From Dictyostelium discoideum (taxonomy: Eukaryota), in assembly GCA_000004695.1 (NCBI GenBank), contig CM000151.3, positions 7,232,001 to 7,296,000 on the forward strand: a stretch of 64,000 nucleotides of DNA, read 5' to 3'. This document shows positions 1 through 31,068 of the stretch, piece after piece (the first letter of the stretch is position 1; each line of letters opens with the position of its first letter). Below the pieces are notes generated by a model. The model saw only the letters and a program-made list of their open reading frames with translations. It was not told the origin of the DNA and searched no databases. Both the position numbers and the translations under genes were made by a program.

Positions 1-2039
1 ATTGTAAGTTTTTATTTTTTTTATTTTTTTTTTTATATGCACACACAATAGCACAAATACACAGATTTTATTTTGGGAAAAAAAAATAATAAAAAAAAAA
101 AAAATAAATAAAAAAAAAAAGAAAACAAAACATTTTTCAACACACTTTCACAAAATAAAATATTGTTGGTCATTTAAGAGTTGGAGTATAAATATATTTT
201 TTTTTTTTTTTTTTTAATTCAAAATAATACCACTACCAACCTGCTATTAAATCCATTACAAAACAACTTTTTAAATATGGTGGTGTGTTAAAAAATGAAT
301 TACAATAACATTCAAAGAAAAAAGAATTATTTTTTTTTTCCAAAAATAAAAATAAAAAAAAAATGAAAATAAATAATTTTACAACTACAAATAAATTATT
401 TATTTTTATTTTTATTTTTATTTTAAAAAATTATTATTTTTATTATTATTTATTATAAAATAGAATGATAAAAATAAGTGGTTTAATTTTATTAAAGTAA
501 AATAAATTATTATTAAAATAATTAGATATATTTAGTAGCGCCAAAACAAGTTACTAAAAAAAAATTTTTTTTTTTTTTTTTATTTTTAATTTGGTTTTAT
601 TAATTTTATTTTTGTGTGAACATAAATGAAATTATAATAACTTCAATAAATTAAAAAAAAAGATGAATTTAATAGAATTTTGCATTGTAATTTTACCTTT
701 TTATTAATTAATTATAAATTTTATTTGATATAAATTAATTTCTAATTTTATTTCATCCTATATAATTATTAATGATGCTATTTATTTTTTTTTAAAATAT
801 TTAATAAATTATTTACTTTTTTTTTTTTTTATTTTAATTTATATTATTTTATTTCACTATAATAGTAAAATTAAACTTTATTTATAAAAAAATAATGAAT
901 AGAAATTAAATTTTTTTTTTTTTATGTGTTGATAAAAGTGATTAAAAAACATAATAAAAATAAAAATAAAATAAAAAAATGGTATGGTTTTAAAGTCCAA
1001 TGGATTTGGGATTTGTTATTTAATCAGTTTTTTTTTTTTTTTTGACAATAATACTACTCTATTTATATCTTTGTTTATATATATAAATATATTCAAAATG
1101 AAACGAAACTAATATATTTAAACAATTCAAATATTATTTTTAATAATAAAAAAAAAAATATATTAAAAAAAACAAATAAAAAACAAATAAAAAAATCAAA
1201 ACAAACCAATAAATATTTATTTATTTTTTTTATTTAATTTCTACTTTATAAAAAATAAAAATCCACACCACCACTCTAAACAAAATAAATAAAAAAAAAA
1301 AAAAAAAAAAAAAAAAATAAATAAAAAAAAAAAAAAAACTGTTGTAGTAGTATGATTCAAGTGGGGAGATATCTAAAATACCCCTAAACTTTTTTTTTCT
1401 TTATTAAAAAAAATAATTGTGTATTAAAAAAAAAAAAATAAAAAGAAAAAAAAAGATTATTATTATAAATTTAATTATTATTTCGATTTACTACAGATCC
1501 TCAAAAAATATATATTAAAAAAAAGAAATAAAATTAAAAATCCACTTTTTATTCTATTTATAGGTCATTGGTATTGTTTTTTTTTTTTTTTATTGAAAAT
1601 ATAATTGATTAAATTAAATAAAAGTTTGAAAAAAAAAAAAAAGAAGAATTAAATCTCTTAAATACTTTATAATATTATATTTAAACCAAAAAATAAAAAA
1701 TAAAAAATGAAAAGGAAATAAATTTTCTCAAAGTAAAATTTATAATTTTAGATCACTTTTATTTATTATTTTTTTTTTTCCTTTTATATGAGATATTTTT
1801 AATGTCTATTATAACAATAAATAAAAGAAAAGGTATACCACATAAAATTTTAAAAAACAAAATTTTTTTTTTTCTATATTTAAATAATTTTAAAATTATC
1901 ATTAACATATTTAAAATAAGATAATAATAATATTTTTTTATTTTATTTGTTATTTTACTTTTTTTATTTTTTTTTTTTATTTATTTTTTTTTTTTTTATG
2001 AAATATATATAAAATTTTTTTTTTTTTTTTTAAAAAAAT

Positions 2040-3588
2040 TTAATTATAATGCATATATCTTGAAGTTGCACTAAATTTAGCATAAGATTTAATAACTTTA
2101 TCAATAGCTTCTAAAAAGTCTTTTTCACTTACAACCTTTCTACGAGCACGAATTGCAAACATACCAGCTTCGGTACAAACGGATCTAATATCGGCACCAG
2201 TTGAGTTTGGACAAAGACGAGCCAATAATTCGAAACGAATATCACGAGCACAGCTCATAGTTTTGGCATGAATGGTAAAGATGTGAGCACGACCCTCCAA
2301 GTCTGGTAAACCAAATTCAACCTTACGATCGAGACGACCTGGACGAAGAAGAGCTGGATCCAAAGTATCTGGACGATTGGTTGCCATCAATACTTTAATG
2401 TTACCACGTGGATCGAAACCATCCAATTGATTGATCAACTCTAACATAGTACGTTGAACCTCATTGTCACCGCCTGCACCATCATCGAAACGAGCACCAC
2501 CAATTGCATCAACTTCATCGAAAAAGATAATACATGCCTTCTTTGAACGTGCCATTTGAAAGAGATCACGTACCATACGTGCACCCTCACCAACATACTT
2601 TTGCACCAACTCTGAACCAATAACACGAACAAAAGCGGCATCAGTACGATTTGCAACGGCACGAGCACACAATGTCTTACCAGTACCTGGTGGACCATAC
2701 ATCAACACACCCTTTGGTGGATCAATACCTAAATTTACAAATTTCTCTGGATGCAACAATGGCATCTCAACTACTTCTCTTAGTTTTTCAATTTGTTCTT
2801 TACAACCACCAACATCCTTATATGTAATATCTGGTTTCTCTTCAACTTGCATCATTGTTACTGAAGCATCAATCTTTGGTGGCAATGGAATTTGAATTTG
2901 ATATTTATTTCTATCAACACTATATATAAAAAAAAAGTAACAAAGAATTAATAATTAATATAATTTAATAAAATTTAAAATTAATTTTTCTTTTTTTTTT
3001 TTATATATATTATAAACTTACCCAACACGAATACCTTCTTCAACATCAGTTGGTGATAATTTATCACCTAATGCAACAACAAACTTTGCAATTTGTTTAA
3101 CTGTAATAATATATTTTGCATTTGGTTTTCCAACATCAATAATTTTAGTACATCTTGCAACTTGAAGTGGTGGTTCTTCATGTGCAGATGTTTTATCAAC
3201 AACTAAATCCCATTGAGAAGGTGGTCCAATACCTGTATCAGATTCTTTAATTCCACAAAGTTCATTGACTTTTGATGTCATCTTTTTAATATCCTCTTCT
3301 AAAATTCTAATTGATTTTGAATATGGTCCAACACCCTTTTTTTTTTTTTCATTTTAAAAATTAATAAATAATAATTTAAAAATAAATAAATAAATAAATA
3401 AAATTAAAATTTACTTGTAAAAAAATAAAATAAAAAAAAAAGAAAAAGAAAAGAAAAAAAAAAAAAAAAATTAAATATTTAAATAATTTACTTACATATG
3501 ATTTCAAAAGTGCAATATCACCTTCATCTAATGCAACTGGTGCTGTTTCATTTAATAATTCATCTTCAACATCTTCTTTATTGACCAT
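2040..3588 (-). CDS. psmC2: 26S proteasome regulatory subunit 7 (AAA-ATPase Rpt1/PSMC2). Three exons, approx 3496-3588, 3022-3336 and 2040-2919.
   Basis: The translation is near-identical to Rpt1 across Walker A (GPPGTGKT), Walker B (IIFFDEVD), the second region of homology and the C-terminal [14 protein letters not shown]. The N-terminus reads MVNKEDV...LLKSY, then [18 protein letters not shown]...RVG, then [17 protein letters not shown] after splicing. Donors are gtaagt, and intron phases 0 and 2 keep the frame. The ORF-track 'M' at 2885 is an internal TTG, not a start. Confidence 0.93.
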
Positions 3589-3960: not shown

Positions 3961-5149
3961 CAATTTTTAATTAATTTTTACTATTTTTTTTTTTTTTTTT
4001 TTATCAAAATTTCAACTTTCCCAATTTAGCCTTTTTCCACTCAACAACCAATTCAATAAATTAATATTAATTTCATCAATTTAAGTTTATGGCTTCCTTT
4101 TTAACATTGGGAAATTAATTTAACAAAAAAATAATTTAAATTATCTTTTTTAATGGCTCAACATTTTTTTTTTTTTTTCTTTATTATTTATTATTGGTCA
4201 ATCAGTGTTCATCCAACAAAGGAAATAAACATATAGTTTTTTTATGAATATTAATTTTGAAATGTGATACAATTCTTTTTTTTATTATAATTTAATTTAT
4301 CTAAAAAAGAATTGTTATTATTATTTTATTTTTTTTATTTTTTTTTTTTTTTGATATTAATTAATTATATACGAGATCTTGATCTAGATACTTAGCAAAA
4401 ATAAATGTTTTATTTAGATTTAATTTAAAATTGTTAGATTAGATTAAAAATTCAAATAATTAATTATGGTTTATGTAAAAATTGTTTCAAAATTTATTAA
4501 AAAGGGAGGTGATAGGTTACTTATTAGATTGATTAAATTTGTTGCCGAAATATTGGCAATGCAGATTTTACTTGTGTCTGTAAGGTTTATTGATAAGAAC
4601 GGCCTCCCTCAATAAATAGTTCAATTTTAATAGTTTTTAATTAATGAAATTTTTTATTTTTTGAGTTTTGTGGGATATAATAGATTCTTAAAAAATTCTT
4701 AAAAAACTCATTTCTTTTCATTTTTTTTATCCTTTGGGTGGTAAAACAAAAAATAAATAAAAAAAAAAAAAAGTTAATAAACCTTTTATTCATTTGTTTT
4801 ATTTTTTTTTTTTTTTTTTTTCTTTCTCAAATAAAACTATTAATTATTGTTTATCAGTTAAATGAAGTAAACAGTGACTAATCCGTAATAAATATATTTA
4901 TTTAATATATTAAATTCAATTTTTAGAAGAGATCATGACCATATAGATCATTTCCTAGATTTTCATTACATAATGCACAATCTTTATGATGAAGTTAGAC
5001 ATTGTTTTGTCTTTTATTTTTAGAATATCCCTCTTTTAATTCTTATGTTGTCCCAATTTTTGAGGTTTTTAAAAATTTAGATGTAAACCTGTTTTTATTG
5101 AGTCGGTATTACCAACTTTTGTAATGAGATTAATAGTTTTATTTGATAT

Positions 5150-5190
5150 ATCGGAACTTCAGTATCCGAACTTCGGAAGTAGTTTAATTG
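5150..5190 (-). promoter_or_regulatory. Two external-B-box-like motifs 20-50 bp downstream of the tRNA-Ser gene.
   Basis: The minus-strand sequence 3' of the tRNA reads ...CCGAAGTTCGGATAC...GAAGTTCCGATAT. Both motifs resemble the B-box consensus GGTTCGANTCC. Dictyostelium tRNA genes frequently carry an extra downstream B box. Confidence 0.35.
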
Positions 5191-5203
5191 ATTGAAAAAG
5201 TAT

Positions 5204-5285
5204 CGACATCGGCAGGGTTCGAACCTGCGCCCCCGAAGGGATCTGATTTCTAGTCAGACGCATTAGACCACTTTGCTACGATGTC
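5204..5285 (-). tRNA. tRNA-Ser (anticodon AGA), 82 nt, with a long variable arm.
   Basis: The minus-strand sequence is GACATCGTAGCAAAGTGGTCTAATGCGTCTGACTAGAAATCAGATCCCTTCGGGGGCGCAGGTTCGAACCCTGCCGATGTCG. It shows a 7-bp acceptor stem, the anticodon loop CTAGAAA (anticodon AGA), a long variable stem-loop (CCCTTCGGGGG) and a T-loop GGTTCGAACC. No intron is present. Confidence 0.9.
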
Positions 5286-5332
5286 TTTGGTGAAATTTTG
5301 ATTTTATTACTTAGTTATACCCTTTTATTTAG

Positions 5333-5878
5333 AGAAAAATCTGGAGGATCCAGAATCAATTGGGGAATAGAAATTTTCAACAGACTAGACATTCCATTAA
5401 CAGCCAACGCCATAGCCATTATTTGCGAAAACATCTGGAGAAGAAGAAACAAGAAAATCCACGAAGGAATAACACTCAAAAACTTAAGAAAACAACTACT
5501 AGTACACGAACTAAAGAAAACTCAAACAGCAGCCTGGAAAAGAACAAAAAACAACATATACAAACTAATCAGACATGAAAAAAAAGCAACCAACAACGAA
5601 CAAATAAAAAAATTCAAAAACATCATCTCCCTACAACTCGAAAGATTTAGCAAACACTGGAACTCACCACTACACACAGTAGCACTACCATCAAACCTCA
5701 ACAAATATATTACGTCACTAAACACACTCTACACCCCCCAACTTTAAAAAAAAAAAAAAAAAAAAAAAACCATACAACCTTAAAAGGCACCTGTAATATC
5801 TAAAAATAAAATTAATAAAATGAGTCATATCTCAAGAAGAAGCAACTAAAAATTGCGTTATTCCATTCAAAAAAAATA
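5333..5878 (+). mobile_element. TRE5-like (tRNA-gene-targeted non-LTR) retroelement fragment, 5'-truncated or internally deleted, with an internal A26 tract. Flanked by a 16-bp direct repeat (TSD).
   Basis: There is an exact 16-bp direct repeat TATACCCTTTTATTTA at 5316-5331 and 5878-5893. The proximal insertion boundary lies 48 bp upstream of the mature tRNA-Ser 5' end. The interval is non-AT-rich and carries a 149-aa ORF (5298-5747) ending in an A26 tract (5745-5770). A 3'-terminal motif TATCTCRAGRAGAAGCA...ATTG(C/T)GTTAT is repeated at about 5826 and about 6141. Confidence 0.5.
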
Positions 5879-6585
5879 TACCCTTTTATTTACCGAATAA
5901 TTTAATAAATATTTTTTAAACTAATCTCTTCTGATTGTAGTCAAAATAATAGGATTTATTTGATCACAACTTTATATTTAACAACAATGAAATTGATTTA
6001 TTTTATTTTTACTATTTACACTAAAATTAATTAATAAAGAAAATCAGAATACCTAGAGTTGAGGGAACAATTTAAATTCTGGTTTTATCTATTAAATTTG
6101 GACCCTGTATAAATCTATTTTTATAAATAAAATTAGAGAAAGTATCTCGAGGAGAAGCACTCACAATTGTGTTATCCAATTAATTCAAAAAACAAAAAAA
6201 CTAGGTAAACAATATATAATTTAATATTTTATATTTAATTTCTTTTATTTATTTTTTTTATCTTTTTTAATATTTTTAGTGAGTATCTCTAAACTGAATA
6301 AAATAATAAAACAACTAAACAATCATTTTCAAAAAAGACGGAAAAGCATATTTTAATTAAAAGTGAGGAAAAAGAAAAAAAAAAAAAAAAAAAAAATTAT
6401 TACTTAAATTAATTTCGTTGGAAAAAAAAAAAAAAAAAAAAAAAAAATGAAAATTTCAAAAAAACGATTGTTGTCGGCTTTTTTTTTTTTTATTTTTATT
6501 TTTATTTTTATTTTTTATTTTTTATTTTTTATTTTTCTTTTTTTTTGTATTACATTTTTCTGATTTTTATAATTATAGTTATTAA

Positions 6586-16196: not shown

Positions 16197-16281
16197 TTAA
16201 TTATGACTTGAATGAATAATAGGTGGACAAATTAATGCAAATTGAATTTGTTCAGATTGATTCTTTTCTTTTTGTTTTTCT

Positions 16282-16338
<57 letters not shown>

Positions 16339-17372
16339 GCCTCACAATTATTTTCATTTTGTTGTTGTTGTTGTTGTTGTTTTTCTTGAGTAATTTCATC
16401 CCAAATCTCTTGTAAAGATATGAAAGCTGAAAGTGCACCACAACCACCAATATATCCATCATTTTCAATTTCATATATTGAACAAATACATAAACCAAAT
16501 TCAGCGATTGCACTAATCAATGATTTAATTTCATTTGTTCTATTATTTCTTAAAATTATTAATGTTTCTTTATTTTCCTTATATTCTTCATCTTCTTCTT
16601 CTTCTTCAATTTTTTGTTGTTTCTCTTTATTTATTTTATTTTTATTTTTTAATTTTAAAATTTGAATTATTGTATTAATTAAACCATAAATAATTCTAAT
16701 TATAAAAACTACTAAACTATAAACCCAAACGAAATTTGAAACTTTACAAACTAAATCCATAAATTTATCAGTAACTTGAAAGATTTTAATTCTTGTACCC
16801 CAAAATATTATATCATTAAGTTCTGATATAAAATTAAATGAATGGTCAATTAATTCTAGTGTATTTAAAAATGATGTACTAATATTTGTAAATGATTTAA
16901 GTGTATTTAGAATTTGACGTTTTCTAGTTAAATTTTGGTTCTCTTTTATCTCTTGATTTTGTTTATCTTTAAATTGTTTCAATGATTCAATTAAATTTTG
17001 AAAAAATTCTACTAAATTATTAAATTCTCTAAAGAATCCAAATAATCTAAACACAATTCTTGCATCACAAAAACTTGATTCTAATGATTTTAATCTTTCT
17101 TTAACTAATTTATCATTAAATTTGTTTGATTTAAATAAAATAGTTTCTAAAATTTTTATTATTCTTTTATTATTATTATTATTGACATTATTATTAATTC
17201 TTTTTTTTTTTCTTTTATCGATAAATGTATTTAATAATCTGGTTATATATTTTTTATCAACAAAATGATGTAAAAGTTGACTAAAGTATTGTATAAATTT
17301 AAATACTTTATCTCTTCCATCTAATGAATTAAAAACACTAATAATTTTATCATTAAATTCTAATATATTCAT
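16197..17372 (-). CDS. PEX11-family peroxisomal membrane protein with low-complexity Asn/Gln/Glu inserts. Single-exon ORF of 391 aa.
   Basis: The N-terminal motif FNSLDGRDKVFKFIQYFSQLL matches the Pex11 signature (..DGREK..R..QY). The C-terminus has an amphipathic/TM segment (LISAIAEFGLCICSIYEIENDGYIGGCGALSAFISLQEIW). ATG was verified at 17372. Confidence 0.65.
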
Positions 17373-19358: not shown

Positions 19359-20516
19359 TTACATAACATTATTAATAGTATCATCAGTTGAAACTTTACT
19401 ATTATTATTTTCACTATTTATTGATATAGTATTACTTTCATTACTTTCATTTGATTTTACAGTTGGTAAAGATACCGGTAATGAATTTAAACTACTACCA
19501 CCAATAACAATATGATTTTTTTGTTTTTCAATTCTTTTAAATTTGAAATAATTTTTAAAAGAAAGTTCACCCATTACAAAAATTACCATTATCATTTGAA
19601 ATGAGTCAGCAATTCCCACAATGAAATTACTTATTATCATATAAACATATGGTTGAGGATTTTGTGGTAAAATAAAATTTATTACTATATCTTGTACTAC
19701 TACAACTATAATTACAATGATAATTGTTGATAGTAATATCTTTGATTTTAAAATCATCTTTTTATAGAAATCTTCATATTGTGCTTTTTTTGAAGATTTC
19801 TTCATTCTTCCAACTAATATCCAACCATTAATTGCAACAGCTAATGAATATACACTTATAAATACAACCATTCCTATTGCCTCTAAAATTGCAATAGAAT
19901 TATCCATTAAAAATATAATTTGAATAATAATTTGCCAACATAGATAAATACCAACTAAAATTGAAGAAATATAATAAATCTTTTTTATATTATTAGAACT
20001 CTTTGTTTTCATTTTTTTAGAAAGAAAGAATTGATATACAATTTGGGCCCATAATGATCCTAAAAAACTCCATTCTTAAAATTTTTAAAATTTTTAAAAT
20101 TTTAAAATTATTAATAATTAATTTATTTTATTTATTTTTTCAAATTAGATTGATACCTTACCACAAAATACAAAAAATACTCCATAAGAGAACCAAAAAT
20201 AGTGCCAAGTACCAACTTTCCAATCGTTAGGGAAAATTACAAATAATACTGAAAATATAACTCTTGTTAAACAAAAAAGAAATAAACAAAGGAATATTAT
20301 AAATTTTGTATTTACCATATTCCTTACAACAACAATTGACTTTCTTTCATGCCAAACTTGGAAACCTTTATATTAAATCATATATTAAAATTTATTATTT
20401 TATTAAATTATTATTTTTTAATTTAATTTATCTTTACCATTCAAAACCATGAAAATAAAATAAAAAACTATTTTAAAAATAAAAAGTGTATAGGCTATCT
20501 TTTCTTCATGATTCAT
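19359..20516 (-). CDS. Seven-transmembrane protein, paralog 1 of the tandem pair. Three exons, approx 20438-20516, 20162-20365 and 19359-20074, about 332 aa.
   Basis: The spliced product is MNHEEKIAYTLFIFKIVFYFIFMVLNG|GFQVWHERKSIVVVRNMVNTKFIIFLCLFLFCLTRVIFSVLFVIFPNDWKVGTWHYFWFSYGVFFVFCG|EWSFLGSLWAQIVYQFF...ILEAIGMVVFISVYS...LPQNPQPYVYMIISNFIVGIADSFQMIMVIFVMG.. with seven TM helices and a Ser/Asn-rich tail. It is about 45% identical to paralog 2. Confidence 0.7.
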
Positions 20517-20670
20517 CTTTGATTCATAAAATAAATAAAATAAATATAATAAAAAAATAAAAAAAAAAAAAAAATGAGAAAAAAAAAAAAAAATATTAAA
20601 AAATAAAAATAGATTTGCGTTGATGAAAAAAAAAATCAAAAAAATATTTGAAATTAAATTCGATTTGAGA

Positions 20671-20710
<40 letters not shown>

Positions 20711-20735
20711 TGTTAAATATTTATCTATTTATTTT

Positions 20736-20769
<34 letters not shown>

Positions 20770-21368
20770 AAATAAACTAAATTTGTGACATACGTGGTGA
20801 CATTCATATATTGAATTATCTTCTGTGAGATACGATACATACTCAATTAAATGATAAGTGTTACTTAAAAGAGCTCGATAATCACATTTAAAAATAGTAT
20901 TTATATCAGTTTTTGAAATATTTGTATACCAGAGGATTATTATTTTTAATTTTTTATTTTTTTTTTTTTTTTTTTTTCTCTAAGTAAAAAACCCTTATTT
21001 TAAAACATATATTTATTTTACCGATGTTTTTTTTATCAATATAATTTTTCAATAATTCTTGAATTTTATCATTATATGATTATTTTTCAAAATCTATTAT
21101 ATTTCATTTTTATCAATATCAATTGGTATTATTTTTTTATTAAGTTATTAAATTTCAAAATCACTTTTAAGTGATTAAGTACCCTAGTAAAATTTGTCAT
21201 AAAATGATGAATCTTCCTTTTTTTTTTTTCCCGTGTAATATTCTAATTTTTTTTTATTTTTTAATACTAAAACTAGTAAAAGAATTATATATTATCACAA
21301 AGTTGGTTTTTTTTTTCTTTAATTTTTTATTTTATTTTATTTATTTTTTTTTTTTTTTTTGTGTACAG

Positions 21369-22244
21369 ATCACCCAAAGATACAGTATTCTTTTGTTTGG
21401 ATTGTAAATTAAAACCATGTTGTACTCAATGTACATCAAATAAAGGTGAACATCATGGTCATAGAACTGATTCATTAGAATTAGTAAATACTCTTTCAGT
21501 ATTGGAACATACTCAAGATATAATGGATAGACTTATAACTTCTTCAATTAAAGATAAGAATGAATTACTTAAAATATTAGTTTATAATTATAATAATGAA
21601 TATCATAATAAAGAGATCTTTGAAAAATTTAATGAAATTTCAAAATTTAATGATCAACAAATTTTTAATAATGAAGATTGTTTTAATGTTCATGGAGATA
21701 CAATTAAAACTATTAAATGTAAGCTTTATACAGTTTTTTTTTTTTTTTTTTTTTAATAAATTATTTTAACATTTCATTCTAATTATTACTAAATATAGTT
21801 AACAATTTAAACTTTAATATTTATAAAGAGGGTGATATTCTTAATTTTAAGGAGAATGTGGGTATAGAATTCAAAGACAATTCTATAAAAAATCAATTAC
21901 CATCAAGTGTAATGCTCTTGGATGGATTCAATCAAAAATTAACACCAGGTATATTACCAGATCATATTAAATGGTTGCATTTAGGTGATATTAAACAAGA
22001 ATTAATTGTTGGCTCAATTCCTAATACTGTGACTCATGTCACTTTATTTGATGGATTTAATCTAAAATTAACACCAGGTATATTGCCAAATTGTCTTGAA
22101 TCCTTGTATTTAGGTAATATTGGACAAGAATTTATGATTGGTTCCATTCCTAATACTGTGAAGAAAGTAAAAATTTCTGAAAATTTTAAACACCAAATTG
22201 AACCTTTTGTTTCAAAAAATGAAATAATAATTAAATTAGGTTGA
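21369..22244 (+). CDS. B-box zinc-finger plus FNIP-repeat protein (Dictyostelium FNIP family), 3' part. Exons approx 21369-21718 and 21799-22244. The initiator exon was not located.
   Basis: A B-box-like Cys/His cluster is present (FFCLDCKLKPCCTQCTSNKGEHHGH). Two FNIP repeats follow (LLDGFNQKLTPGILPDHIKWLHLGDIKQELIVGSIPNTVTHVTLFDGFNLKLTPGILPNCLESLYLGNIGQEFMIGSIPNTV). The donor is gtaagc and the phase-1 junction was verified. The exon at 21369 starts in phase 2 after acceptor ..gtgtacag with no in-frame ATG, so a short 5' exon must lie in 20.8-21.35 kb. Confidence 0.65.
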
Positions 22245-22557
22245 AGTTAAACAATTCCAATAAAAAAAATAAAAAAAAAATAAAAAAAAAATAAAAAAAA
22301 ATTAATAATTCTCTTTTATACAAATAAATTTTAAAACTGATTTAAAAAACTTATTTAAAATGTGAAGATGTAAGATTTTTAAGGTTGGTATTATTGATAT
22401 TATAATATATTGTTGTAAATTGTTTATAAAATTTATTATTTATTTTAATTTATTATTTTATTTATTTTTAATTTTTATTTTATTTTATTTTTTTAATTAA
22501 AAAAAAAAACTATAAGAATAAAAATAAAATGCAAAGAACTTAATTTGAATTAAATTA

Positions 22558-23694
22558 TCAATTTAATAATTTTGTTTTTTCATTTGGTTCTTGTTGTTGA
22601 CGTTGAGAAATAAAATTATTATTATTATTATTATTACTATTACTATTGTTGTTGTTATTATTATTATTATTATCGAAAAGATCACTACGACCATCATCAA
22701 TATTATTAATTGAAATATCAACACCTTCATTGGCACTATATAACATTGGTTTAAATTCATGAGGATTTAAAGCTTTATGTTGTAATAGGATTTCACAAAT
22801 TTCATCATCAGAAGTTTGATTAAAAGTAAAAGTATGAGATTTTACAAATCTTACAAAAACTGAACGATCTTGATACTTTTCATTGATAACATGATCAATT
22901 AAATCTTGATATTTGAAAATATCGAAAATGGTAATATTTTTAAATTGTTTAACGGTTGTATAGGAGAGGTGAGACATCATATTCTTGAAATCTAAATCAG
23001 AGAGTAAATTAACGTAGGCAATAAAGTACATTAGAGGGAAAAAGACATAGGTAAGGAAGAATTGAACGATTAGACTAATTGAACTAACCATATTTGTTCC
23101 AAATAAAAGATGAACGTTTAAACCGTTGCATGGCATATCGCCATATTGGTGGTTACGCCAGTAAACCCATACAAACTTTAGTCCCATAAATACAAGAATA
23201 TTAACAAATAGGAAAATGGTTAAACGCACCTCATGTTTCTTTTCACCTTCAATGAAAATTTTAGAAGTGGCTAAAATATTTTGAATTCTCTTTCTCTTTA
23301 AATATAATAAATAATCCAAAGTTAAATATAATATCACTTCTAATAAAAAGCAAATAAATGAAATTAATAAAATTAATCCAGAATATTGATCACCTTGTAA
23401 ACCAAATAGACTAACTGGGAAATTTAATGAATATTTTGAATCGGTATGGAAATATTCATTTAAACATTCTGGAACTCCTTCTATGAAACAATTATCTAAA
23501 GACATTGAATCCGTTGTACCATTTTTACCATTTCCAGAACATTCTACAATTGTCATTGTTGTAAATTCTTGATAAAATCCAACTTCCATAAAAACCATAA
23601 AACCTAATGTAATAATTCCAATAACTATAATTCTTACAATTGTAGGTTGAACTGTTTTTAAATAATTATTAAAATCAAATTTGAATTGATCCAT
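22558..23694 (-). CDS. Four-pass membrane protein (member a of a tandem triplicated family), 378 aa, single exon.
   Basis: ATG and stop were verified. The predicted topology has a short N-terminus (MDQFKFDFNNYLK) and TM1, followed by an extracellular loop of about 60 aa with 3 Cys. It continues with TM2, an intracellular KRKRIQ loop, TM3, a short extracellular loop with 1 Cys, and TM4. Last comes a 110-150 aa tail with conserved YLSDLDFK..M..LS and SEIxEILL motifs. The gene ends in poly-N. Confidence 0.8.
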   Translation of the reverse strand: MDQFKFDFNNYLKTVQPTIVRIIVIGIITLGFMVFMEVGFYQEFTTMTIVECSGNGKNGTTDSMSLDNCFIEGVPECLNEYFHTDSKYSLNFPVSLFGLQGDQYSGLILLISFICFLLEVILYLTLDYLLYLKRKRIQNILATSKIFIEGEKKHEVRLTIFLFVNILVFMGLKFVWVYWRNHQYGDMPCNGLNVHLLFGTNMVSSISLIVQFFLTYVFFPLMYFIAYVNLLSDLDFKNMMSHLSYTTVKQFKNITIFDIFKYQDLIDHVINEKYQDRSVFVRFVKSHTFTFNQTSDDEICEILLQHKALNPHEFKPMLYSANEGVDISINNIDDGRSDLFDNNNNNNNNNSNSNNNNNNNFISQRQQQEPNEKTKLLN

Positions 23695-24368
23695 TTTTTT
23701 TTTTTTTTTTTTTTTCTCTCCTCTCCTTTTTTATTTTATTTTTATATAAATACAATTATTTTTTTTTTATTTTTATTTTTATTTTATGTTTTCTTTTTTT
23801 TTTTTTTTTTTTTTTTGAATATGCTTTTTTTTTTTTTTTTTTTTTTTCTATTAATAAATTTTGGTTTAGTTTAGGGGAAAAAAAAAATAAATAATAATTA
23901 AATTAAATAAAATTTAATTAAAAAAAAAAAATATAATTAAATTTTTATTTTTTTTTATTTTTCCATAATTCTGTAACCTATAAATAAACTTTTTTAATCT
24001 CAATTACCACATGCAAGGTTATGATAAAAAAAATTTAATTCAAAAAAATTAAAATTTTTTTTTTTTTTAACACTGGTTCCAAAAATTGACACTTGATGAC
24101 GCCAACATTTTTTTTTTTCAAACACCAAACCACAAAACTAAAAAAAATATCTAACCCACTGGTTTTTTTTCAAACAACTTTTCCAATTATAACGGACAAA
24201 AATAATATCAATTTGAGCTTTGAAATGAAAAAAAATAAAAAAATAAAAAAAAAAATAAAATAAAAAAATAAAAAAATTTAAACATTGTTTTTTTTATTTG
24301 TTATTTATAGTTTATTTTATTTTTTTTTTTTTATATTAATATCTTACATATTTTTTTTTTTTTTTTTT

Positions 24369-25430
24369 TTAATTTATTAATTTATCTTTTTCATTATGAT
24401 CATCATCATTACTACCAATAAATGATTTTGAAAGTTTTGATTCATTATAAAGCATTGGTTGAAAATCTTGTGGATTTGAAATTTTATAAGATAATAGAAT
24501 TTCAACAATTTCAGAAATTGGTGTTTTGAAAAAGCTAAATGTATTCTTACGTAAAAATAAAATTAATTTTGAATCTTTTGGATGTCTTTGAGGTATAGCA
24601 GAATCAATGATTTTATTATATTTATCAAAATCCAATACAGTGATTTGTTTAATTTGTTTAATACTTTCATGAGAGAGATGGTCAGTCATTTTCTTGAAAT
24701 CCAAATCTGATAAATAATTAATCCAACTACCAAGGAAAACCAATGGGAAAATTATATATGGAATTGAACTTGTGATTAAGGTTCCAATCGATGCAGATAA
24801 GGTGCCCAAGAAATTCACATTGTAAACATTACCATCACATTCGATATTACTATATTGGTTATCCCTATAAATGATCCAAATCACTTTTAAACCAATATAA
24901 ATCAAACCTGAAACTGCAAAATAAATAGTTAACCTTTTTTCAAACTTTTTATTACCATTTAAAAATATTTTAGATTCTGATAAAATTTGTTGAATTCTCG
25001 TTCTCTTTACCCAATTAAAATAATGCATTCCTTGATAAATTAATTGAATTCCAAGGAATAATAAAACTGCAAAACCAATTAATAATGAACTATATTTATC
25101 AGTTGGCAAACCCAACATTGACACTGAAAAAGCTAAAGAATAATTTGAACCTGTATTAAATTGTTGATTAACGCATGTTGTAAATTTAAATCCTTCATAA
25201 AAACAATTTTCTAAAGAATTTGAACTTGTAATACTACTACTATTATTTTTAATTACAATTGATGGTAATGTACATCCAACAATTTGCATTTTGTCAAAAT
25301 TTGAAAAAAATGTATATTCACCAACCATTAATAATCCAAAACCAATTAAAATTGTTAATAAAACTCTAATTGGTTTTGGTTGTGTAACATTTAAATAATT
25401 ATTAAATTCGAATGTAAATTGATCATTCAT
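24369..25430 (-). CDS. Four-pass membrane protein (family member b), 353 aa, single exon.
   Basis: The N-terminus reads MNDQFTFEFNNYLNVTQPKPIR. It shares the GC..P...NCF...C....GSNYSLAF ectoloop and the YLSDLDFKKM tail motifs, and is about 35-40% identical to members a and c. Confidence 0.8.
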   Translation of the reverse strand: MNDQFTFEFNNYLNVTQPKPIRVLLTILIGFGLLMVGEYTFFSNFDKMQIVGCTLPSIVIKNNSSSITSSNSLENCFYEGFKFTTCVNQQFNTGSNYSLAFSVSMLGLPTDKYSSLLIGFAVLLFLGIQLIYQGMHYFNWVKRTRIQQILSESKIFLNGNKKFEKRLTIYFAVSGLIYIGLKVIWIIYRDNQYSNIECDGNVYNVNFLGTLSASIGTLITSSIPYIIFPLVFLGSWINYLSDLDFKKMTDHLSHESIKQIKQITVLDFDKYNKIIDSAIPQRHPKDSKLILFLRKNTFSFFKTPISEIVEILLSYKISNPQDFQPMLYNESKLSKSFIGSNDDDHNEKDKLIN

Positions 25431-25469
25431 TTCTTTATTATTTATTTATATATATTTAATTAATTAATT

Positions 25470-25520
25470 TATTTATTTATTTATATATTAATTTATTTAT
25501 TAATTTATTTATTTATTTTT

Positions 25521-25580
<60 letters not shown>
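25470..25580. repeat. (ATTT)n tetranucleotide repeat.
   Basis: A TTTATTTATTTATTTA run lies in the spacer between family members b and c. Confidence 0.9.
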
Positions 25581-25595
25581 TTATTAATTTATTAA

Positions 25596-25631
<36 letters not shown>

Positions 25632-25872
25632 GATATGATTGAAGAAAAAAATAATTAAAAATAAAAATAAAAAGAATTTTCTTTATTTTTATTTATAAAA
25701 TTGGTGCAATTGTTGTGGAGTGTAACCTTAGATAAAATAAAATCATTATTTTTAGAATTTTTATAATAAAATTTTTGGTCAAAGGCGTTTGGAATAAAAA
25801 AAAATAAAAAAAATGAAAAAAAAATAAAAAATAAAAAAAAAATAAAAAAATGTCTTTTCAGATGCCACCACC

Positions 25873-25903
<31 letters not shown>

Positions 25904-26319
25904 ATTTCTATTTTTTCAAGTGTATTTTTAATTCATCAGAAAATCTCCTCATCTGGATTATTTACAGTTTTTATTTGTCATTTTTAAAAGTTTGAGTAAC
26001 TATTTTTCAAAAAAATAGGGGACATCTATAAAAATTAACTTTTTAATCCAATCTAAAAATAACAAAAAGAAAAAAAAGACTTTAAATTAAAAGACTCAAA
26101 TCAATAATTCTCATTTAACTACTTTTTTTTTTTCGAATTTTTCGAATTTTTACCAGGATTTGGATTTTCGATACCAAAGATATCTTTATTTTTTAGGATG
26201 CCATCGCATTTAATTTAATAAGATTATCTTTATTATTTTTTTTTTAATTTAAATTTAAAATAAAAAAAAATAAAAAAAAAAAAAAATAAAAAAAAAAAAA
26301 AGAAAAAAAGAAGAAAATT

Positions 26320-26386
<67 letters not shown>

Positions 26387-26387
26387 T

Positions 26388-27413
26388 TTATAAATATTGA
26401 TTTTGAATTAAATTATCATTAATTCTATTTTCATTTAAAAAAGTAGATTTAATATTTTTTGTTTGTATTGATTTAAATTCATCAGGTGAAGATTCTTTAT
26501 GTAATAATAAAATTTCAACAATTTCAGATGTTGAAGTTTTCCAAAATTTGAATGTATTACATTTTAAAAATAAAATAAAATTTTTATCATTTGAATATCT
26601 TTTTTTTAAAGTTGAATTTAATAATTTATTATATTTATCCATATCAAATATATAAATTTCATTAATTTTTTCTAAACTAATTTTTGAAAGATTTTCAGCC
26701 AATTTTTTAAATTCTAATTCTGATAAATAATTTAACCAACCCATTAAAAAAACACCAGGAATAATTAAATAACCAATTGAACCCATTACTATACCTGAAA
26801 TATAAGAAAATAAACTTTTTTCAAATTCCAAGTAATATGTATCTCCTGAACATTCAATTTCACTATAAATATCGTATCTATTTAATAACCACATAATTTT
26901 AGAACAAATATAACCAATACCAGTAACTAATAGAAATATTGTAACTTTTTTTTCATTTCTTTTATTTCCATCAATTAAAATTAAAGAACCTGATAAAACA
27001 TCTTGAATTCTTTTTCTCTTTACACTTTGAAAATATTGTGCAGTTTGGAATGTACTTAAAAATGTTATAAATAAAATCACCAATATTGTACCAATCAAAC
27101 CATTATATTTATCAGATTTTCCACCAACATTAAATGCTAAAGAATAATTTGAACCTGTATTATAATAATTATTTATACATTTTGTTACTAATAAATCATT
27201 ATTAAAACAATTATCAATATTCATTTCATTTGAATCTTTTTGATTTGGAAGTGAACAGCCAATTGCAACAAATTTTTCAAAACCTTTAAAAAAACCGGCT
27301 TCAGTTAAAATCATTAAGATGACCCCAATCGCCATTTGAATATAGATTCTAAATGGTTTTGGTTGACATTTTTTTAAATAACTACTAAATTCAAATGAAA
27401 AATGATTATCCAT
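26388..27413 (-). CDS. Four-pass membrane protein (family member c), 341 aa, single exon.
   Basis: The N-terminus reads MDNHFSFEFSSYLKKCQPKPFR. It has the same topology and motifs (NYLSELEFKKL, SEIVEILL). Confidence 0.8.
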   Translation of the reverse strand: MDNHFSFEFSSYLKKCQPKPFRIYIQMAIGVILMILTEAGFFKGFEKFVAIGCSLPNQKDSNEMNIDNCFNNDLLVTKCINNYYNTGSNYSLAFNVGGKSDKYNGLIGTILVILFITFLSTFQTAQYFQSVKRKRIQDVLSGSLILIDGNKRNEKKVTIFLLVTGIGYICSKIMWLLNRYDIYSEIECSGDTYYLEFEKSLFSYISGIVMGSIGYLIIPGVFLMGWLNYLSELEFKKLAENLSKISLEKINEIYIFDMDKYNKLLNSTLKKRYSNDKNFILFLKCNTFKFWKTSTSEIVEILLLHKESSPDEFKSIQTKNIKSTFLNENRINDNLIQNQYL

Positions 27414-27535
27414 TTTTTTTTTTAAAATAAATAAATAAATAAAAAAATAATAATAATAATATATAATAATTATAATAATAATAATAATAATAATAATATT
27501 AATAAAAAATAATAAAAAGTATTGATTTAAGTGAT

Positions 27536-27576
<41 letters not shown>

Positions 27577-28221
27577 CTCTTTTACAAAAAAAAACAAAAA
27601 AAAAAAAAAAAAAAAAAGAAAAAAAAATTAAAAATAAAAACAAAAATAAAAACCAAGGTTATAACATCATATATTATTGTAATGGAACTCGTTAAGGGTT
27701 GTTTTTTTTTTTTTTTAATATCTTTTCTTTTTGTAACTCGCCATAACATTTTATTTTTTTTTATTTTTATTTTTATTATTTTTTTAATTTTTCAATTTTT
27801 TTTTAACCTATTTATTTTGAGAATAAAAATCAGATATTTACAAAATTTTATTTTTAATCGGTTTTTTTTTTTTTTTTTTTGGCATCAAAAAAAAGAAAAA
27901 CACTGGCCGAGTTTTTTTTTTTTTTTTTTTCAGTAATCACCAAAAACCTATAATATTAATTTACCAAAAATGGCTGAGATTAGTAAAGAAAATGAAGATA
28001 ATTTTATTTTTAAAATGAAAGTATTATATAATCAAATGATTCACATACCATCAATGTTCAGTACATTAAAAACAGAGTTTCCTCTTTTTTTTGAAACTGA
28101 TACTACAAATATAATTCATTTACCAATGACATTACAGAGCAAAATTATTCAAAAGTGAATTTCTCTTCGAAAATTTTTTTTAAAAATTTAAAGATATAAA
28201 AACAAAATCCTAAATATATTA

Positions 28222-28281
<60 letters not shown>

Positions 28282-28338
28282 AAGATTTTAATTGATATAA
28301 ATAGACCAACAAGAGGATATTGTTCAAAATTTATAAAA

Positions 28339-29279
28339 ATGTTAACTCAAACATTAGAAAGATTAGATAAAGAAGTTAATGAATCAATATTAGAGAAATT
28401 TTTAGAAATAATATCACCAATAACGCCACATCAAAATGATGATGGTGGTGATAATAATCAATCAGAAGATAAAACTGAATATTGTTGGAAATCATATTAT
28501 ATACAAAATAAATGGATAACTTTAAAAAATGAAAATGCATACAATTTAGTTGGTATGACAACATGGGGTGCAGCATATCAACTCTCTGATTTCATTCTAT
28601 CAAATCAAAATTTATTTATTAATAAAAATATATTAGAATTGGGTAGTGGTACAGGTTTAGTTGGTATAATCTTAGATTTCATTAAACCATTAAAAAAAGT
28701 CATCTTAACTGATTATTCTCCAAAAGTTTTAAAAAATTTAAAATTTAATATGGAATTAAGTATGTGTTTTTTTTAAAGTTTATTTGATAATAATTAATAA
28801 TAATAATAGTAATAATTTTTTTTTAAAAAAAATGTTTAGATAATTTAGAAATTCAAGATTTTATTAATGATGATGATGATGATAATAATAATAATGTAAA
28901 TAAAGAAAATGATGATAAAATTAATCAGGTTAGAGTTTTAGATTGGGAGATCGAAGATTTAAATATTTTAAATAATTATAGTGGATTAAATGATTCAAAT
29001 ATTATATTAGGTGCTGATATAGTTTATGAACCATCACTTTGTAAATACTTGGTATCAATTTTATACTTTTTATTAGAAAGAAATGAAAACTCTGTAGCAT
29101 ACATTTCTTCAACAATTAGAAACCAATCAACATTTTCAATATTTCAAAAAGAATTAAATCTTAAAAATTTAACTGTAATTGATATAACAAAACAATTTGA
29201 GCAATCATCTCCAACTTCACCTTTTATTTATGATAGATCTCAAATTGTATTATATAAAATTTATTTAGAAAAGAAATAA
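28339..29279 (+). CDS. eEF2 lysine methyltransferase (FAM86/EEF2KMT; METTL21-like class I SAM-MTase). Exons approx 28339-28759 and 28840-29279.
   Basis: It contains GMTTWGAAYQLSDFILSNQNLFINKNILELGSGTGLVGIIL (MTase motif I) and ..VRVLDWE...ILGADIVYEPSLCKYL.. The donor is gtatgt and the phase-1 splice was verified. The ORF at 27970-28154 could be an additional 5' exon; it is in frame via a GTGAAT donor and an ..aaatag acceptor. Confidence 0.82.
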
Positions 29280-29379
29280 AAAATAAAAATAAAAATAAAA
29301 AAAAGTATGTGTTGATACATATGTAATATAGTTTTAATTAGTCTATAGAATATATATATACATGAATTAATTGTTTTTA

Positions 29380-29419
29380 TTATTTATTTTTGTATAAAAA
29401 AAAAAGATAAAATGAAAAT

Positions 29420-29458
<39 letters not shown>

Positions 29459-29736
29459 TAAGTAATGTCATCTTCTAAAGATTTATGTTGTTGAACTGAA
29501 ACTAAATTTGGAGTACCTTTGAATGCTTCGTAAACTCTAATATGATCATAGCCATTATCAGTTTTAACTTTGATAAAGTAATTCATACCATTAACCAATT
29601 GTTTCTTATACGAGATTGCTTGGAATATTGAATAATTGGTACCTAGTTTCTTTTCAAGTTGTTCTTTAACTGTATTGGTAATTTCTTGAATCTCTGGTGT
29701 GGCATTAATTGGATGTGGGCTAATTCCTCCTGTCAT
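29380..29736 (-). CDS. Cystatin A / stefin-family cysteine-protease inhibitor. The ORF as given reads through the expected stop into a K10 extension.
   Basis: The sequence MTGGISPHPINATPEIQEITNTVKEQLEKKLGTNYSIFQAISYKKQLVNGMNYFIKVKTDNGYDHIRVYEAFKGTPNLVSVQQHKSLEDDITYF matches stefin (QxVxG motif QLVNG). It is then followed in frame by [24 protein letters not shown] because TATTTTTTA is followed by an A33 tract. ATG was verified. Confidence 0.82.
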
Positions 29737-30533
29737 CTTTTTTTTTTTTTTTTAAACTATTAATATTTGAATACTTTAAAAGTTGTTTTTTGATTTTAAA
29801 TGTTAACTAAATTAAAAAAAAAAAAAAAATTTCTTTTAAATAATTAAAAAAATACAAATTGCTTTGAATTAATATTTTTTTTTTTTTTTTTTAATTTAGT
29901 TTTTTTATTATAAAAAAAAAAATTAAAATAAAATTTTAAAAAAATTATTATAAAAATGGTGAAAGGGGTATTTAATTTTATAATTATGACACCACACTCC
30001 CCCACTCACTTTTATATATATTTTTTATTTATAAATGTATATATCAAACAAAAGTAATTTTTTTTTTTTAATATTTCATTTTTAAAGGTAAATTTTTTTT
30101 TTTACATCTCACTTCATATAAATTTATTTTTTTCTATTTTTAAACTTTTTTTTTTTATTTTTTTTTTTTTTTATTTTTTATTTTTTTTCAAATTACAAAA
30201 AAAAACCAAATTCTTGAATATCTTTAATCTCGATCAAACCATTTAACATTTTTTATTTTTATTTTGTATTATTTTATATTATTTTTTTTTTTTCGTAAAA
30301 TGCAAATTTAATTTAATTTATTTTTTTTTCATTTCTCAACATTTCAAAAAAAAAAAAATCAATATAAAAAAAAAAAAAAAAATTAAAATCATTTTATTAA
30401 AATACCTTTTTAAATATCTTTACAATAATTATTATCTTTATAATAATTATTATATTTATCTAAACATTTCCAAATAATAAAAAATATAAAAATAAAATTA
30501 AAATTAAAATTAAAATTAAAAAAAAAAACAAAT

Positions 30534-31068
30534 ATGGATTGTATAAGTACATTTGAAAATAATAATAATAATAAAAATAATTTAAGTGAAATTATTAAAA
30601 AAACAGTTGAATTTGTAAAAGAAGAAATTAATTCATATAATGACCCATCACATGATTATAATCATATTGAACGTGTTTGGAAATTAGCAAAGAATATTGC
30701 AGAGAAAGAGAATTATGCAGACCCAAATAATAGTGAACGTCCAACTGAATTATTAGAATTGGCAGCATTATTACATGATGTGAAAGATCATAAATATTTG
30801 AAAAAGGGTGAAGACGAAAATACATGTTCAAATACAATCATTTCATTTTTAACTTCAAATAATTATCCATTAGAAAGTGCTCAAAAGATTGCACTCATAG
30901 TTAGTCAAATTTCTTTTAAAAATGAATTAGGTAATTTTTCAACAACTCAACTTTTACTTGAATCTAAAATTGTACAAGATGCTGATAGATTAGATGGTAT
31001 GTTATTATTATTATTATTATAATTAAATTTATTTATTAAATTTAAAATAATTATTAATAATTATTTAA

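Follow-up and report, generated by a model that had tools for sequence, protein, structure and literature searches.

Three genes that lie head-to-tail on the minus strand within a 64,000-nucleotide stretch of the Dictyostelium discoideum genome (assembly GCA_000004695.1, contig CM000151.3, positions 7,232,001 to 7,296,000 of the forward strand; hereafter the window) raise the question of what kind of membrane protein they encode and where in the cell it might act. A preliminary description, made from the sequence alone, regarded them as a tandem triplication of a four-pass membrane protein whose architecture resembles that of claudins and stargazin or of CALHM and other large-pore channels. 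Here, we suggest from sequence comparison that the genes belong to a family of four-pass membrane proteins, predicted to be glycosylated, that is confined to dictyostelids and has not been described before, and that appears to have undergone an ancient tandem expansion. We further propose, with a probability of about 0.5, that the proteins are tetraspans sorted by adaptors to endocytic, phagosomal or contractile-vacuole membranes, where they would have a scaffolding or regulatory role, possibly as hetero-oligomers. In this proposal, the functional core of the proteins would be a polar intramembrane site formed by a Glu in transmembrane segment 1 (TM1), a Lys in TM3 and an aromatic face of TM3.

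Three complete minus-strand open reading frames (ORFs), which we call paralogs A, B and C (Table 1), lie head-to-tail in the window, and their coordinates and their lengths of 378, 353 and 341 amino acids (aa) are exactly as they had been described. An exact-sequence look-up revealed that their translations are identical, residue for residue, with annotated proteins of chromosome 2 of D. discoideum AX4, which carry the labels "hypothetical" or "transmembrane protein". Because of this identity, the three are single-exon genes. Pairwise identity is 36-43% (tblastn E values of 1e-55 to 1e-84), so the low identity of about 35-40% given before is correct except for its upper bound. No further copy of the family was found by tblastn within the window. 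The window is extremely AT-rich (about 20% GC), and the spacers between the three genes, described as AT-rich and about 0.7-1 kb long, measure 674 and 957 bp with 13% GC. The only low-complexity sequence in the triplet is a poly-Asn tract in the tail of A, near its end (window 22600-22700), and the motifs shared by the three proteins are not low-complexity artefacts. The length of A is 378 aa in AX4, 372 and 364 aa in D. cf. discoideum and 368 aa in D. firmibasis, and the differences fall mainly in an Asn/Ser-rich tract just ahead of the conserved EKTKLLN end.

In the following, residue numbers and the structure model refer to paralog B, and family-wide counts cover 27 members, with both subfamilies of the family included. 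Hydropathy analysis revealed four hydrophobic segments of about 19 residues in each protein at aligned positions. Across the family, net charge is +1.5 at the N-terminus and +4.9 in the intracellular loop, and it is -2.7 in loop 1 and -1.6 in loop 2. Each of the 27 members has at least one N-glycosylation sequon in loop 1, where an N-Y-S is conserved, and none has one in the intracellular loop. This charge pattern, the sequon distribution and the hydrophobic segments place both termini in the cytosol and both loops on the exofacial or lumenal side, and the AlphaFold model agrees with this arrangement. The four passes, the large loop 1 with its Cys and the long cytosolic tail, as first proposed from the sequence, are upheld by all of these lines of evidence. 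The proteins contain on average 3.0 Cys in loop 1 and 1.0 in loop 2. The loop 1 Cys are invariant or nearly so in the family alignment, and the four conserved Cys would be enough for two predicted disulfides.

All motifs listed in the preliminary description are present in the alignment of A, B and C. These are M(D/N)xxFxFxFxxYL at the N-terminus, NCF...C...(G/D)S(N/K)YSL(A/N)F with three Cys in loop 1 (about 60-68 aa), KR(K/T)RIQ in the intracellular loop, one Cys in loop 2, and LSDLDFK and EI(V/C)EILL in the 107-143 aa tail. The exact forms given there do not extend to paralog A, the most deviant of the three, which has DSKYSLNF, LLSDLDFKNM and DEICEILL. In the N-terminal helix, FFAT, FxDxF and YxxPhi motifs were considered and rejected because the paralogs do not conserve them.

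When we predicted the structure of B with AlphaFold2, the predicted local distance difference test (pLDDT) score was 69.5 with an alignment of 10 sequences and 80.9 with the alignment of 27 sequences, the latter with a predicted template modelling score (pTM) of 0.69. In the model, loop 1 forms a strand, a helix at about residues 73-91 and then a short strand, and the predicted ectodomain is built from this strand and helix of loop 1 and a beta-hairpin of loop 2. Residues 250-320 have pLDDT values of 81-93, and the cytosolic C-terminal domain is confidently predicted to be a folded alpha/beta unit of about 90 residues that is kept in both subfamilies. In B, this domain carries the motifs NYLSDLDFK, NTFxF, EIVEILL and NPxxFxP. 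The acidic tail at the end of the chain is disordered in the model.

A candidate sorting signal is found at the very C-terminus of the family, where an acidic stretch is followed by [DE]xxxL[LI] and usually one more residue, as in EKDKLIN (B), EKTKLLN (A), ENQKLIN and ETNNLIN. The strict motif is present in the last 9 residues of 18 of the 27 members, including members of the distant subfamily of about 23% identity. In 2000 shuffles of the tails, the motif came out in 0.30 members on average and in at most 3, an enrichment that is not to be read as a formal probability because the 27 sequences are phylogenetically related. The motif persists where the remaining tail no longer aligns, and the tail that bears it is a cytosolic segment by the positive-inside rule and the sequon distribution. 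In paralog C, the C-terminus of the AX4 protein is NDNLIQNQYL (window 26391-26420), a degenerate form of the motif; C and its orthologs in D. citrinum and D. firmibasis end with ND(N/K)LIQNQYL and not with [DE]xxxL[LI]-x. The terminal ...K-L-I-N was also considered as a dilysine retrieval signal for the endoplasmic reticulum. This was rejected since the Lys residues are at -4/-6 and not at -3 and -4 or -5, and it is further countered by the replacement of the -4 Lys with Asn in several members.

It is known that [DE]xxxL[LI] motifs in cytosolic tails are read by the adaptor protein (AP) complexes AP-1, AP-2 or AP-3 and that such cargo is routed to the endosomal/lysosomal system. Adaptor recognition includes motifs near the C-terminus, for example in LIMP-II, and acidic clusters in the tail also direct proteins of Dictyostelium, by way of AP-1, to the contractile vacuole. 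The family resembles LIMP-II/SCARB2 (DERAPLI) and CD3-gamma (DKQTLL) in having the motif near the C-terminus of a cytosolic tail with an acidic stretch before it. What is shared is a short linear motif, which implies no homology, and adaptor binding of the present proteins is a prediction. We infer that the terminal motif may be an acidic dileucine signal read by the clathrin adaptors AP-1, AP-2 or AP-3. If it is, the proteins would live in or cycle through the post-Golgi/endocytic system, namely endolysosomes, phagosomes or the contractile-vacuole network, and would not be stably at the cell surface. The earlier idea of a surface protein is weakened by this conserved motif, which suggests endomembrane residence or cycling.

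A second conserved feature lies within the membrane. Glu38 of TM1 and Lys182 of TM3 are invariant in 27 of 27 members, and each of them is located 3-5 residues from the exofacial end of its own hydrophobic segment. The conservation of TM3 is helically periodic (helical moment 0.091, permutation p < 0.0005), and the conserved face consists of Y178-K182-W185-R189-Y193, with Y178 kept in 96% of members. The two charged residues would be positioned at similar depth in the outer or lumenal leaflet, beside the aromatic and basic face of TM3, and together with this face they may constitute an intramembrane working site. Such a site could stabilise the bundle as a buried salt bridge, or its polar groups could receive an ion, a lipid head-group or a partner helix. 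Most likely, the proteins would be small tetraspan subunits with a scaffolding or regulatory role in an endomembrane compartment, and the paralogs may hetero-oligomerise.

How old is this family, and are all of its copies maintained? A word-indexed protein search for relatives gave Dictyostelium matches only, and an exhaustive hidden Markov model (HMM) search of 1.84 billion cluster representatives gave 14 clusters. Wherever the source of a cluster is stated, it is a dictyostelid (Dictyostelium spp., Tieghemostelium lacteum or Synstelium polycarpum), and one further cluster is a EukProt entry with its species unstated. The genes of the second subfamily are single and dispersed, and they are found in D. 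discoideum, D. purpureum, D. citrinum and other species. The tandem array has the order C-B-A in D. cf. discoideum and C-B'-B-A in D. firmibasis, and the orthologous arrays adjoin the same Methyltransf_16, cystatin, HD-domain and PEX11 genes. Tandem arrays are also indicated in D. purpureum, where three family genes have consecutive accessions, and in D. citrinum and D. dimigraforme, each with a pair of genes whose locus tags are consecutive. DICPUDRAFT_57886 is given as the InParanoid ortholog of B by Sucgang et al. 2011 (PMC3188802).

A neighbour-joining tree places A with D. purpureum 86244 (bootstrap 100) and unites B and C in a clade (bootstrap 100) with unresolved internal order; D. purpureum and Tieghemostelium each have duplicates of their own. 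We calculated the ratio of nonsynonymous to synonymous substitutions (dN/dS) by the Nei-Gojobori method (NG86), and ortholog pairs gave 0.10-0.12 for A, 0.29-0.32 for B and 0.20-0.28 for C. Comparison among the three paralogs, which had been suggested before, was carried out and is uninformative, with dS of 0.8-1.1 near saturation, and the ortholog pairs were used instead. With NG86 in an AT-rich genome and a neighbour-joining tree, both analyses are approximate, and we regard the qualitative conclusion as robust. Because the A lineage is already separate in D. purpureum, the arrays are syntenic and ortholog dN/dS is 0.10-0.32, these comparisons point to an old expansion with all copies under purifying selection, in line with the old, selected local expansion first envisaged.

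Several unusual members were observed in these searches. A fourth tandem copy, B', is present in D. firmibasis (RB653_002895, at 8328-9365 of the orthologous locus L002) and D. dimigraforme (ACTA71_005138). It is 66-71% identical to B and has the highest dN/dS in the set (0.36-0.47), and the D. firmibasis protein ends with …DKENNK and has no dileucine motif. B' was either lost by D. discoideum or never present there. Two shortened members come from wild D. discoideum assemblies, P0022 (ACTFIR_002518, 238 aa) and P0029 (ACTFIR_004198, 197 aa). P0022 passes from the N-terminus, TM1 and loop 1 straight into the cytosolic C-terminal domain and has no TM2-TM4. The two may represent pseudogenes, gene models with splicing errors or genuine short isoforms. 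In P0019 of Synstelium polycarpum (1574 aa), an N-terminally truncated four-pass module of the distant subfamily is fused to about 1250 residues of Cys-rich repeats that end in a TM segment, probably a gene-model fusion with a neighbouring gene.

Expression data are available for A and B. In supplementary file 5 of Kin et al. 2018 (PMC6198379), which includes the Parikh 2010 values, B mRNA is very low, with 0.29 units at 0 h, 6.9 at 4 h and 0.5-1.4 at 8-24 h. The values there are 1.9 in prespore, 3.2 in prestalk and 0.03 in cup cells, and 1.95 in spore, 0.09 in stalk and 0.16 in vegetative samples. In file 7 of Rosengarten et al. 2015 (PMC4403905), which lists genes whose expression differs between developmental time points, A has four entries and B has five. 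The very low mRNA of B, together with the absence of all three proteins from the searched supplements of the whole-life-cycle proteome, would fit decaying or non-functional duplicates or annotation artefacts. Such an explanation is effectively refuted by selection and conservation: A, B and C are intact in three genomes with dN/dS of 0.10-0.32, the motifs, Cys and charged TM residues are kept across genera, the AlphaFold2 model is confident, promoter islands are conserved (see below), and A and B are listed as differentially expressed in development.

We then compared the family with known membrane protein families. Pfam searches with the three proteins (E <= 10) and the 27 members (E <= 1) gave scattered sub-threshold noise, with no model common to even two members, and an HMM profile search of PDB sequences gave nothing below E = 1. 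The statement that the proteins belong to no named family is borne out by these results. When the model was compared with known structures by Foldseek, no match was below E = 0.34; the best one was LRRC8A (E 0.34, probability 0.28, TM-score 0.25), which is not significant, and connexins and pannexin-1 recur among the 50 matches listed of the 106 with E <= 10. For profile comparison, the reference human sequences of PANX1, LRRC8A(1-435) and claudin-4 were confirmed against PDB entries (949, 1010 and 445 bits). The probabilities given by hhalign for the family profile were 0.33% with PANX1, 0.14% with LRRC8A and 0.11% with claudin-4. Against a profile of the TM region of 18 LRRC8 sequences the family gave 0.13%, out of register, while the single PANX1 sequence, as positive control, gave 92% (E = 5e-7) against the same profile. 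This test has power, because the control reaches 92%, and it is negative. The claudin/stargazin-like or CALHM/large-pore-like resemblance of the preliminary description therefore finds no support in the Foldseek and hhalign results, and membership in the claudin, CALHM or large-pore families is not supported.

The order of secondary structure elements nevertheless resembles, in the model, that of large-pore channel subunits more than that of claudins, and we keep this as a lead. Like pannexins, LRRC8, innexins and connexins, the family has cytosolic termini, four TM segments, a helix before TM1, a strand followed by a helix in loop 1, a beta-hairpin in loop 2, conserved Cys in loops 1 and 2, and a C-terminal region that is folded in the cytosol. 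Unlike these channels, it has a single Cys in loop 2, and its intracellular loop is a very short stretch of about 10 residues instead of a helical domain. If the proteins were subunits of an oligomeric channel, by analogy or very distant relationship to pannexin, innexin, LRRC8, connexin or CALHM, the pore would be lined by the N-terminal helix together with TM1, and its outer vestibule would consist of the Cys-stabilised ectoloops. In favour of this are the predicted order of elements, from the N-terminal helix over the long TM2 through the folded C-terminal domain, and the non-significant Foldseek matches, and hetero-oligomeric channels typically retain sets of paralogs. The tiny match that hhalign gave with LRRC8A is also topologically equivalent, covering TM1 and the first Cys after it. 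This local match (B residues 19-54 with LRRC8A 21-58) is statistically meaningless at 0.14%; in it, K-P stands where TM1 starts, and the first strand that follows TM1 has DKM-x4-C (FDKMQIVGC and QDKMICLPC). Against such a relationship stand the negative LRRC8-profile test with its PANX1 control and the differences in the loops. There is also no Pfam match to the Pannexin_like and Innexin models for pannexin/LRRC8/innexin (PF12534, PF00876) or to Connexin (PF00029), with no significant structural superposition, and no family HMM or solved-structure match to CALHM (Ca_hom_mod, PF14798). We give this explanation a small chance. There is a still slimmer chance that a new class of oligomeric membrane channels in Amoebozoa is founded by this family, convergent on or extremely diverged from pannexin/LRRC8/connexin and residing in endolysosomal or contractile-vacuole membranes, in which TM1 Glu, TM3 Lys and the N-terminal helix would jointly be the permeation or gating apparatus.

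Claudins contain the signature W-GLW-C-C with two Cys in loop 1, and their fold is a left-handed four-helix bundle under a five-stranded sheet. The family shares with Claudin/PMP22/TARP (stargazin)/Sur7 proteins the four passes, a large Cys-containing loop 1, a short loop 2 and, in the model, a beta-sheet ectodomain formed from the two loops. Surface tetraspans of this kind might serve cell-cell or cell-substrate contact or the organisation of plasma-membrane domains in multicellular development, and it fits such a role that the family is confined to aggregatively multicellular amoebae and that A and B are listed as developmentally differentially expressed. We consider it very unlikely for the following reasons. 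First, there is no Pfam match to PMP22_Claudin or Claudin_2 (PF00822, PF13903) or to SUR7 or Sur7/PalI (PF06687). Second, hhalign gives the low value above for claudin-4, and loop 1 of B and the family alignment contain no GLW of the W-GLW-C-C signature, the Cys spacing being C-x22-C-x9-C. Third, claudins have no conserved N-terminal helix or folded C-terminal domain. Finally, the terminal dileucine signal speaks against stable surface residence, and B expression is about 1 unit across the multicellular stages. The large second extracellular loop with CCG that defines tetraspanins (PF00335) is not found in the family either.

MARVEL/synaptophysin-like vesicle tetraspans have the same topology, with cytosolic termini, Cys in lumenal loops and a tail with sorting information, and the dileucine signal fits them as well. 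As such, the proteins would shape or mark one population of transport vesicles with no transport activity of their own, a role that overlaps with the one we prefer. We regard a relationship of this kind as rather unlikely, as there is no Pfam match to MARVEL (PF01284) and synaptophysin is not among the 50 Foldseek matches listed. The fold score appears to be at the level of generic helical bundles. The tail of synaptophysin is a disordered repeat and not a folded domain, and MARVEL proteins have no equivalent of the invariant, buried TM1 Glu and TM3 Lys. Based on these comparisons, the family is undescribed at the family level, having no Pfam entry, no solved relative and no literature in the sources searched.

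Here, we need to consider several points that weigh against adaptor-sorted endomembrane tetraspans. Paralog C and the extra D. firmibasis copy have no strict dileucine motif, and the C-terminus of C suggests that sorting may have diverged between the paralogs. The conservation of a short linear motif may also have other causes, and the endomembrane compartment is only predicted. For a possible contact between E38 and K182, covariation is unusable because both residues are invariant. B mRNA is very low in standard conditions, at most about 7 units at 4 h of starvation. The three gene IDs were not found in the main text of the literature searched, and they are absent from the searched supplements of the life-cycle proteome, a Mycobacterium-vacuole proteome and a bacterial-response study; because B mRNA is very low, absence from organelle proteomes is uninformative.

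Table 1. Features of the tandem cluster and its surroundings (positions in the window; residue numbers as indicated).
Feature	Position	Strand	Details
Paralog A, DDB_G0276907 (Q86JA7)	22558-23694	-	378 aa; ORF, exact match to annotated AX4 protein
Acidic dileucine [DE]xxxL[LI] of A, EKTKLL	22564-22581	-	A residues 372-377
Spacer/promoter of A	23695-24368	-	674 bp, 13.5% GC
Paralog B, DDB_G0276905 (Q86JA8)	24369-25430	-	353 aa; ORF, exact match to annotated AX4 protein
Acidic dileucine [DE]xxxL[LI] of B, EKDKLI	24375-24392	-	B residues 347-352, one residue after
Cytosolic alpha/beta C-terminal domain	24447-24725	-	B residues 236-328; AlphaFold2 model; conserved in both subfamilies
TM4	24726-24788	-	B residues 215-235; hydropathy, AlphaFold2 model
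Loop 2 (exofacial) beta-hairpin	24789-24854	-	B residues 193-214; invariant Cys198; alignment, AlphaFold2 model
TM3 helix	24855-24947	-	B residues 162-192; invariant Lys182 (codon 24885-24887), 27/27 members
KRTRIQ at end of B TM2 helix	24990-25007	-	Arg145 invariant; alignment
TM2, long helix into cytosol	24972-25097	-	B residues 112-153; hydropathy, alignment, AlphaFold2 model
Loop 1 (exofacial/lumenal)	25098-25301	-	B residues 44-111; Cys53, Cys76, Cys86, beta-strand, helix of about 19 residues, sequons
TM1	25302-25373	-	B residues 20-43; Glu38 (codon 25317-25319), 27/27 members; hydropathy
Cytosolic N-terminal helix, QFTFEFNNYLNVT	25383-25421	-	B residues 4-16; alignments; helix in AlphaFold2 models
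Spacer/promoter of B	25431-26387	-	957 bp, 12.7% GC
Paralog C, DDB_G0277023 (Q550U0)	26388-27413	-	341 aa; ORF, exact match to annotated AX4 protein
PEX11	16197-17372	-	
B-box + FNIP-repeat gene	21361-22244	+	two exons
Methyltransf_16 lysine methyltransferase	28339-28776	+	first exon
Cystatin	29380-29736	-	
HD-domain protein	30534-31022	+	

The spacers contain short conserved elements. Since blastn of the spacers was swamped by poly-A/T matches, we compared their non-AT islands with those of the orthologous spacers (L001 and L002), and islands were found at similar upstream distances in the three species. In the A promoter, GTTGGCGTCATCAAGTGTCA at about -400 and ATAACCTTGCATGTGGTAAT at about -330 are kept in the two other species, with ATAACCTTGCATGTGGTAAT inverted in D. 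firmibasis, and the conserved islands of the B promoter are GGTGGTGGCATCTGAAAAGACA, CCAAACGCCTTTGACC and CTAAGGTTACA. A core of AAGGTTA is common to the A and B promoters. These islands are probably transcription-factor footprints. An Rfam search of positions 20000-30000 found no RNA gene in the spacers. The neighbouring B-box/FNIP, Methyltransf_16, cystatin, HD-domain and PEX11 genes recur at the orthologous loci and have no apparent functional link to the cluster. Elsewhere in the window, a tRNA-Ser(AGA) gene at 5204-5285 on the minus strand is the only tRNA, and the 1-kb bins 2001-3000 and 5001-6000 have 31-35% GC against a background of about 20%.

Lineage-specific membrane protein families are common in Dictyostelium, and the present family is one of many uncharacterised dictyostelid-specific families; nothing in our results contradicts that expectation. 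It would bear on a long-standing open question only if the channel explanation were true. The family offers a confidently predicted membrane fold that has no solved counterpart, and its small size, three tandem genes and a few dispersed ones, makes it experimentally tractable, as the cluster could be deleted in one step. If the interpretation that we prefer is true, the endocytic, phagosomal or contractile-vacuole membranes in one of the major model phagocytes would gain a lineage-specific, adaptor-sorted tetraspan.

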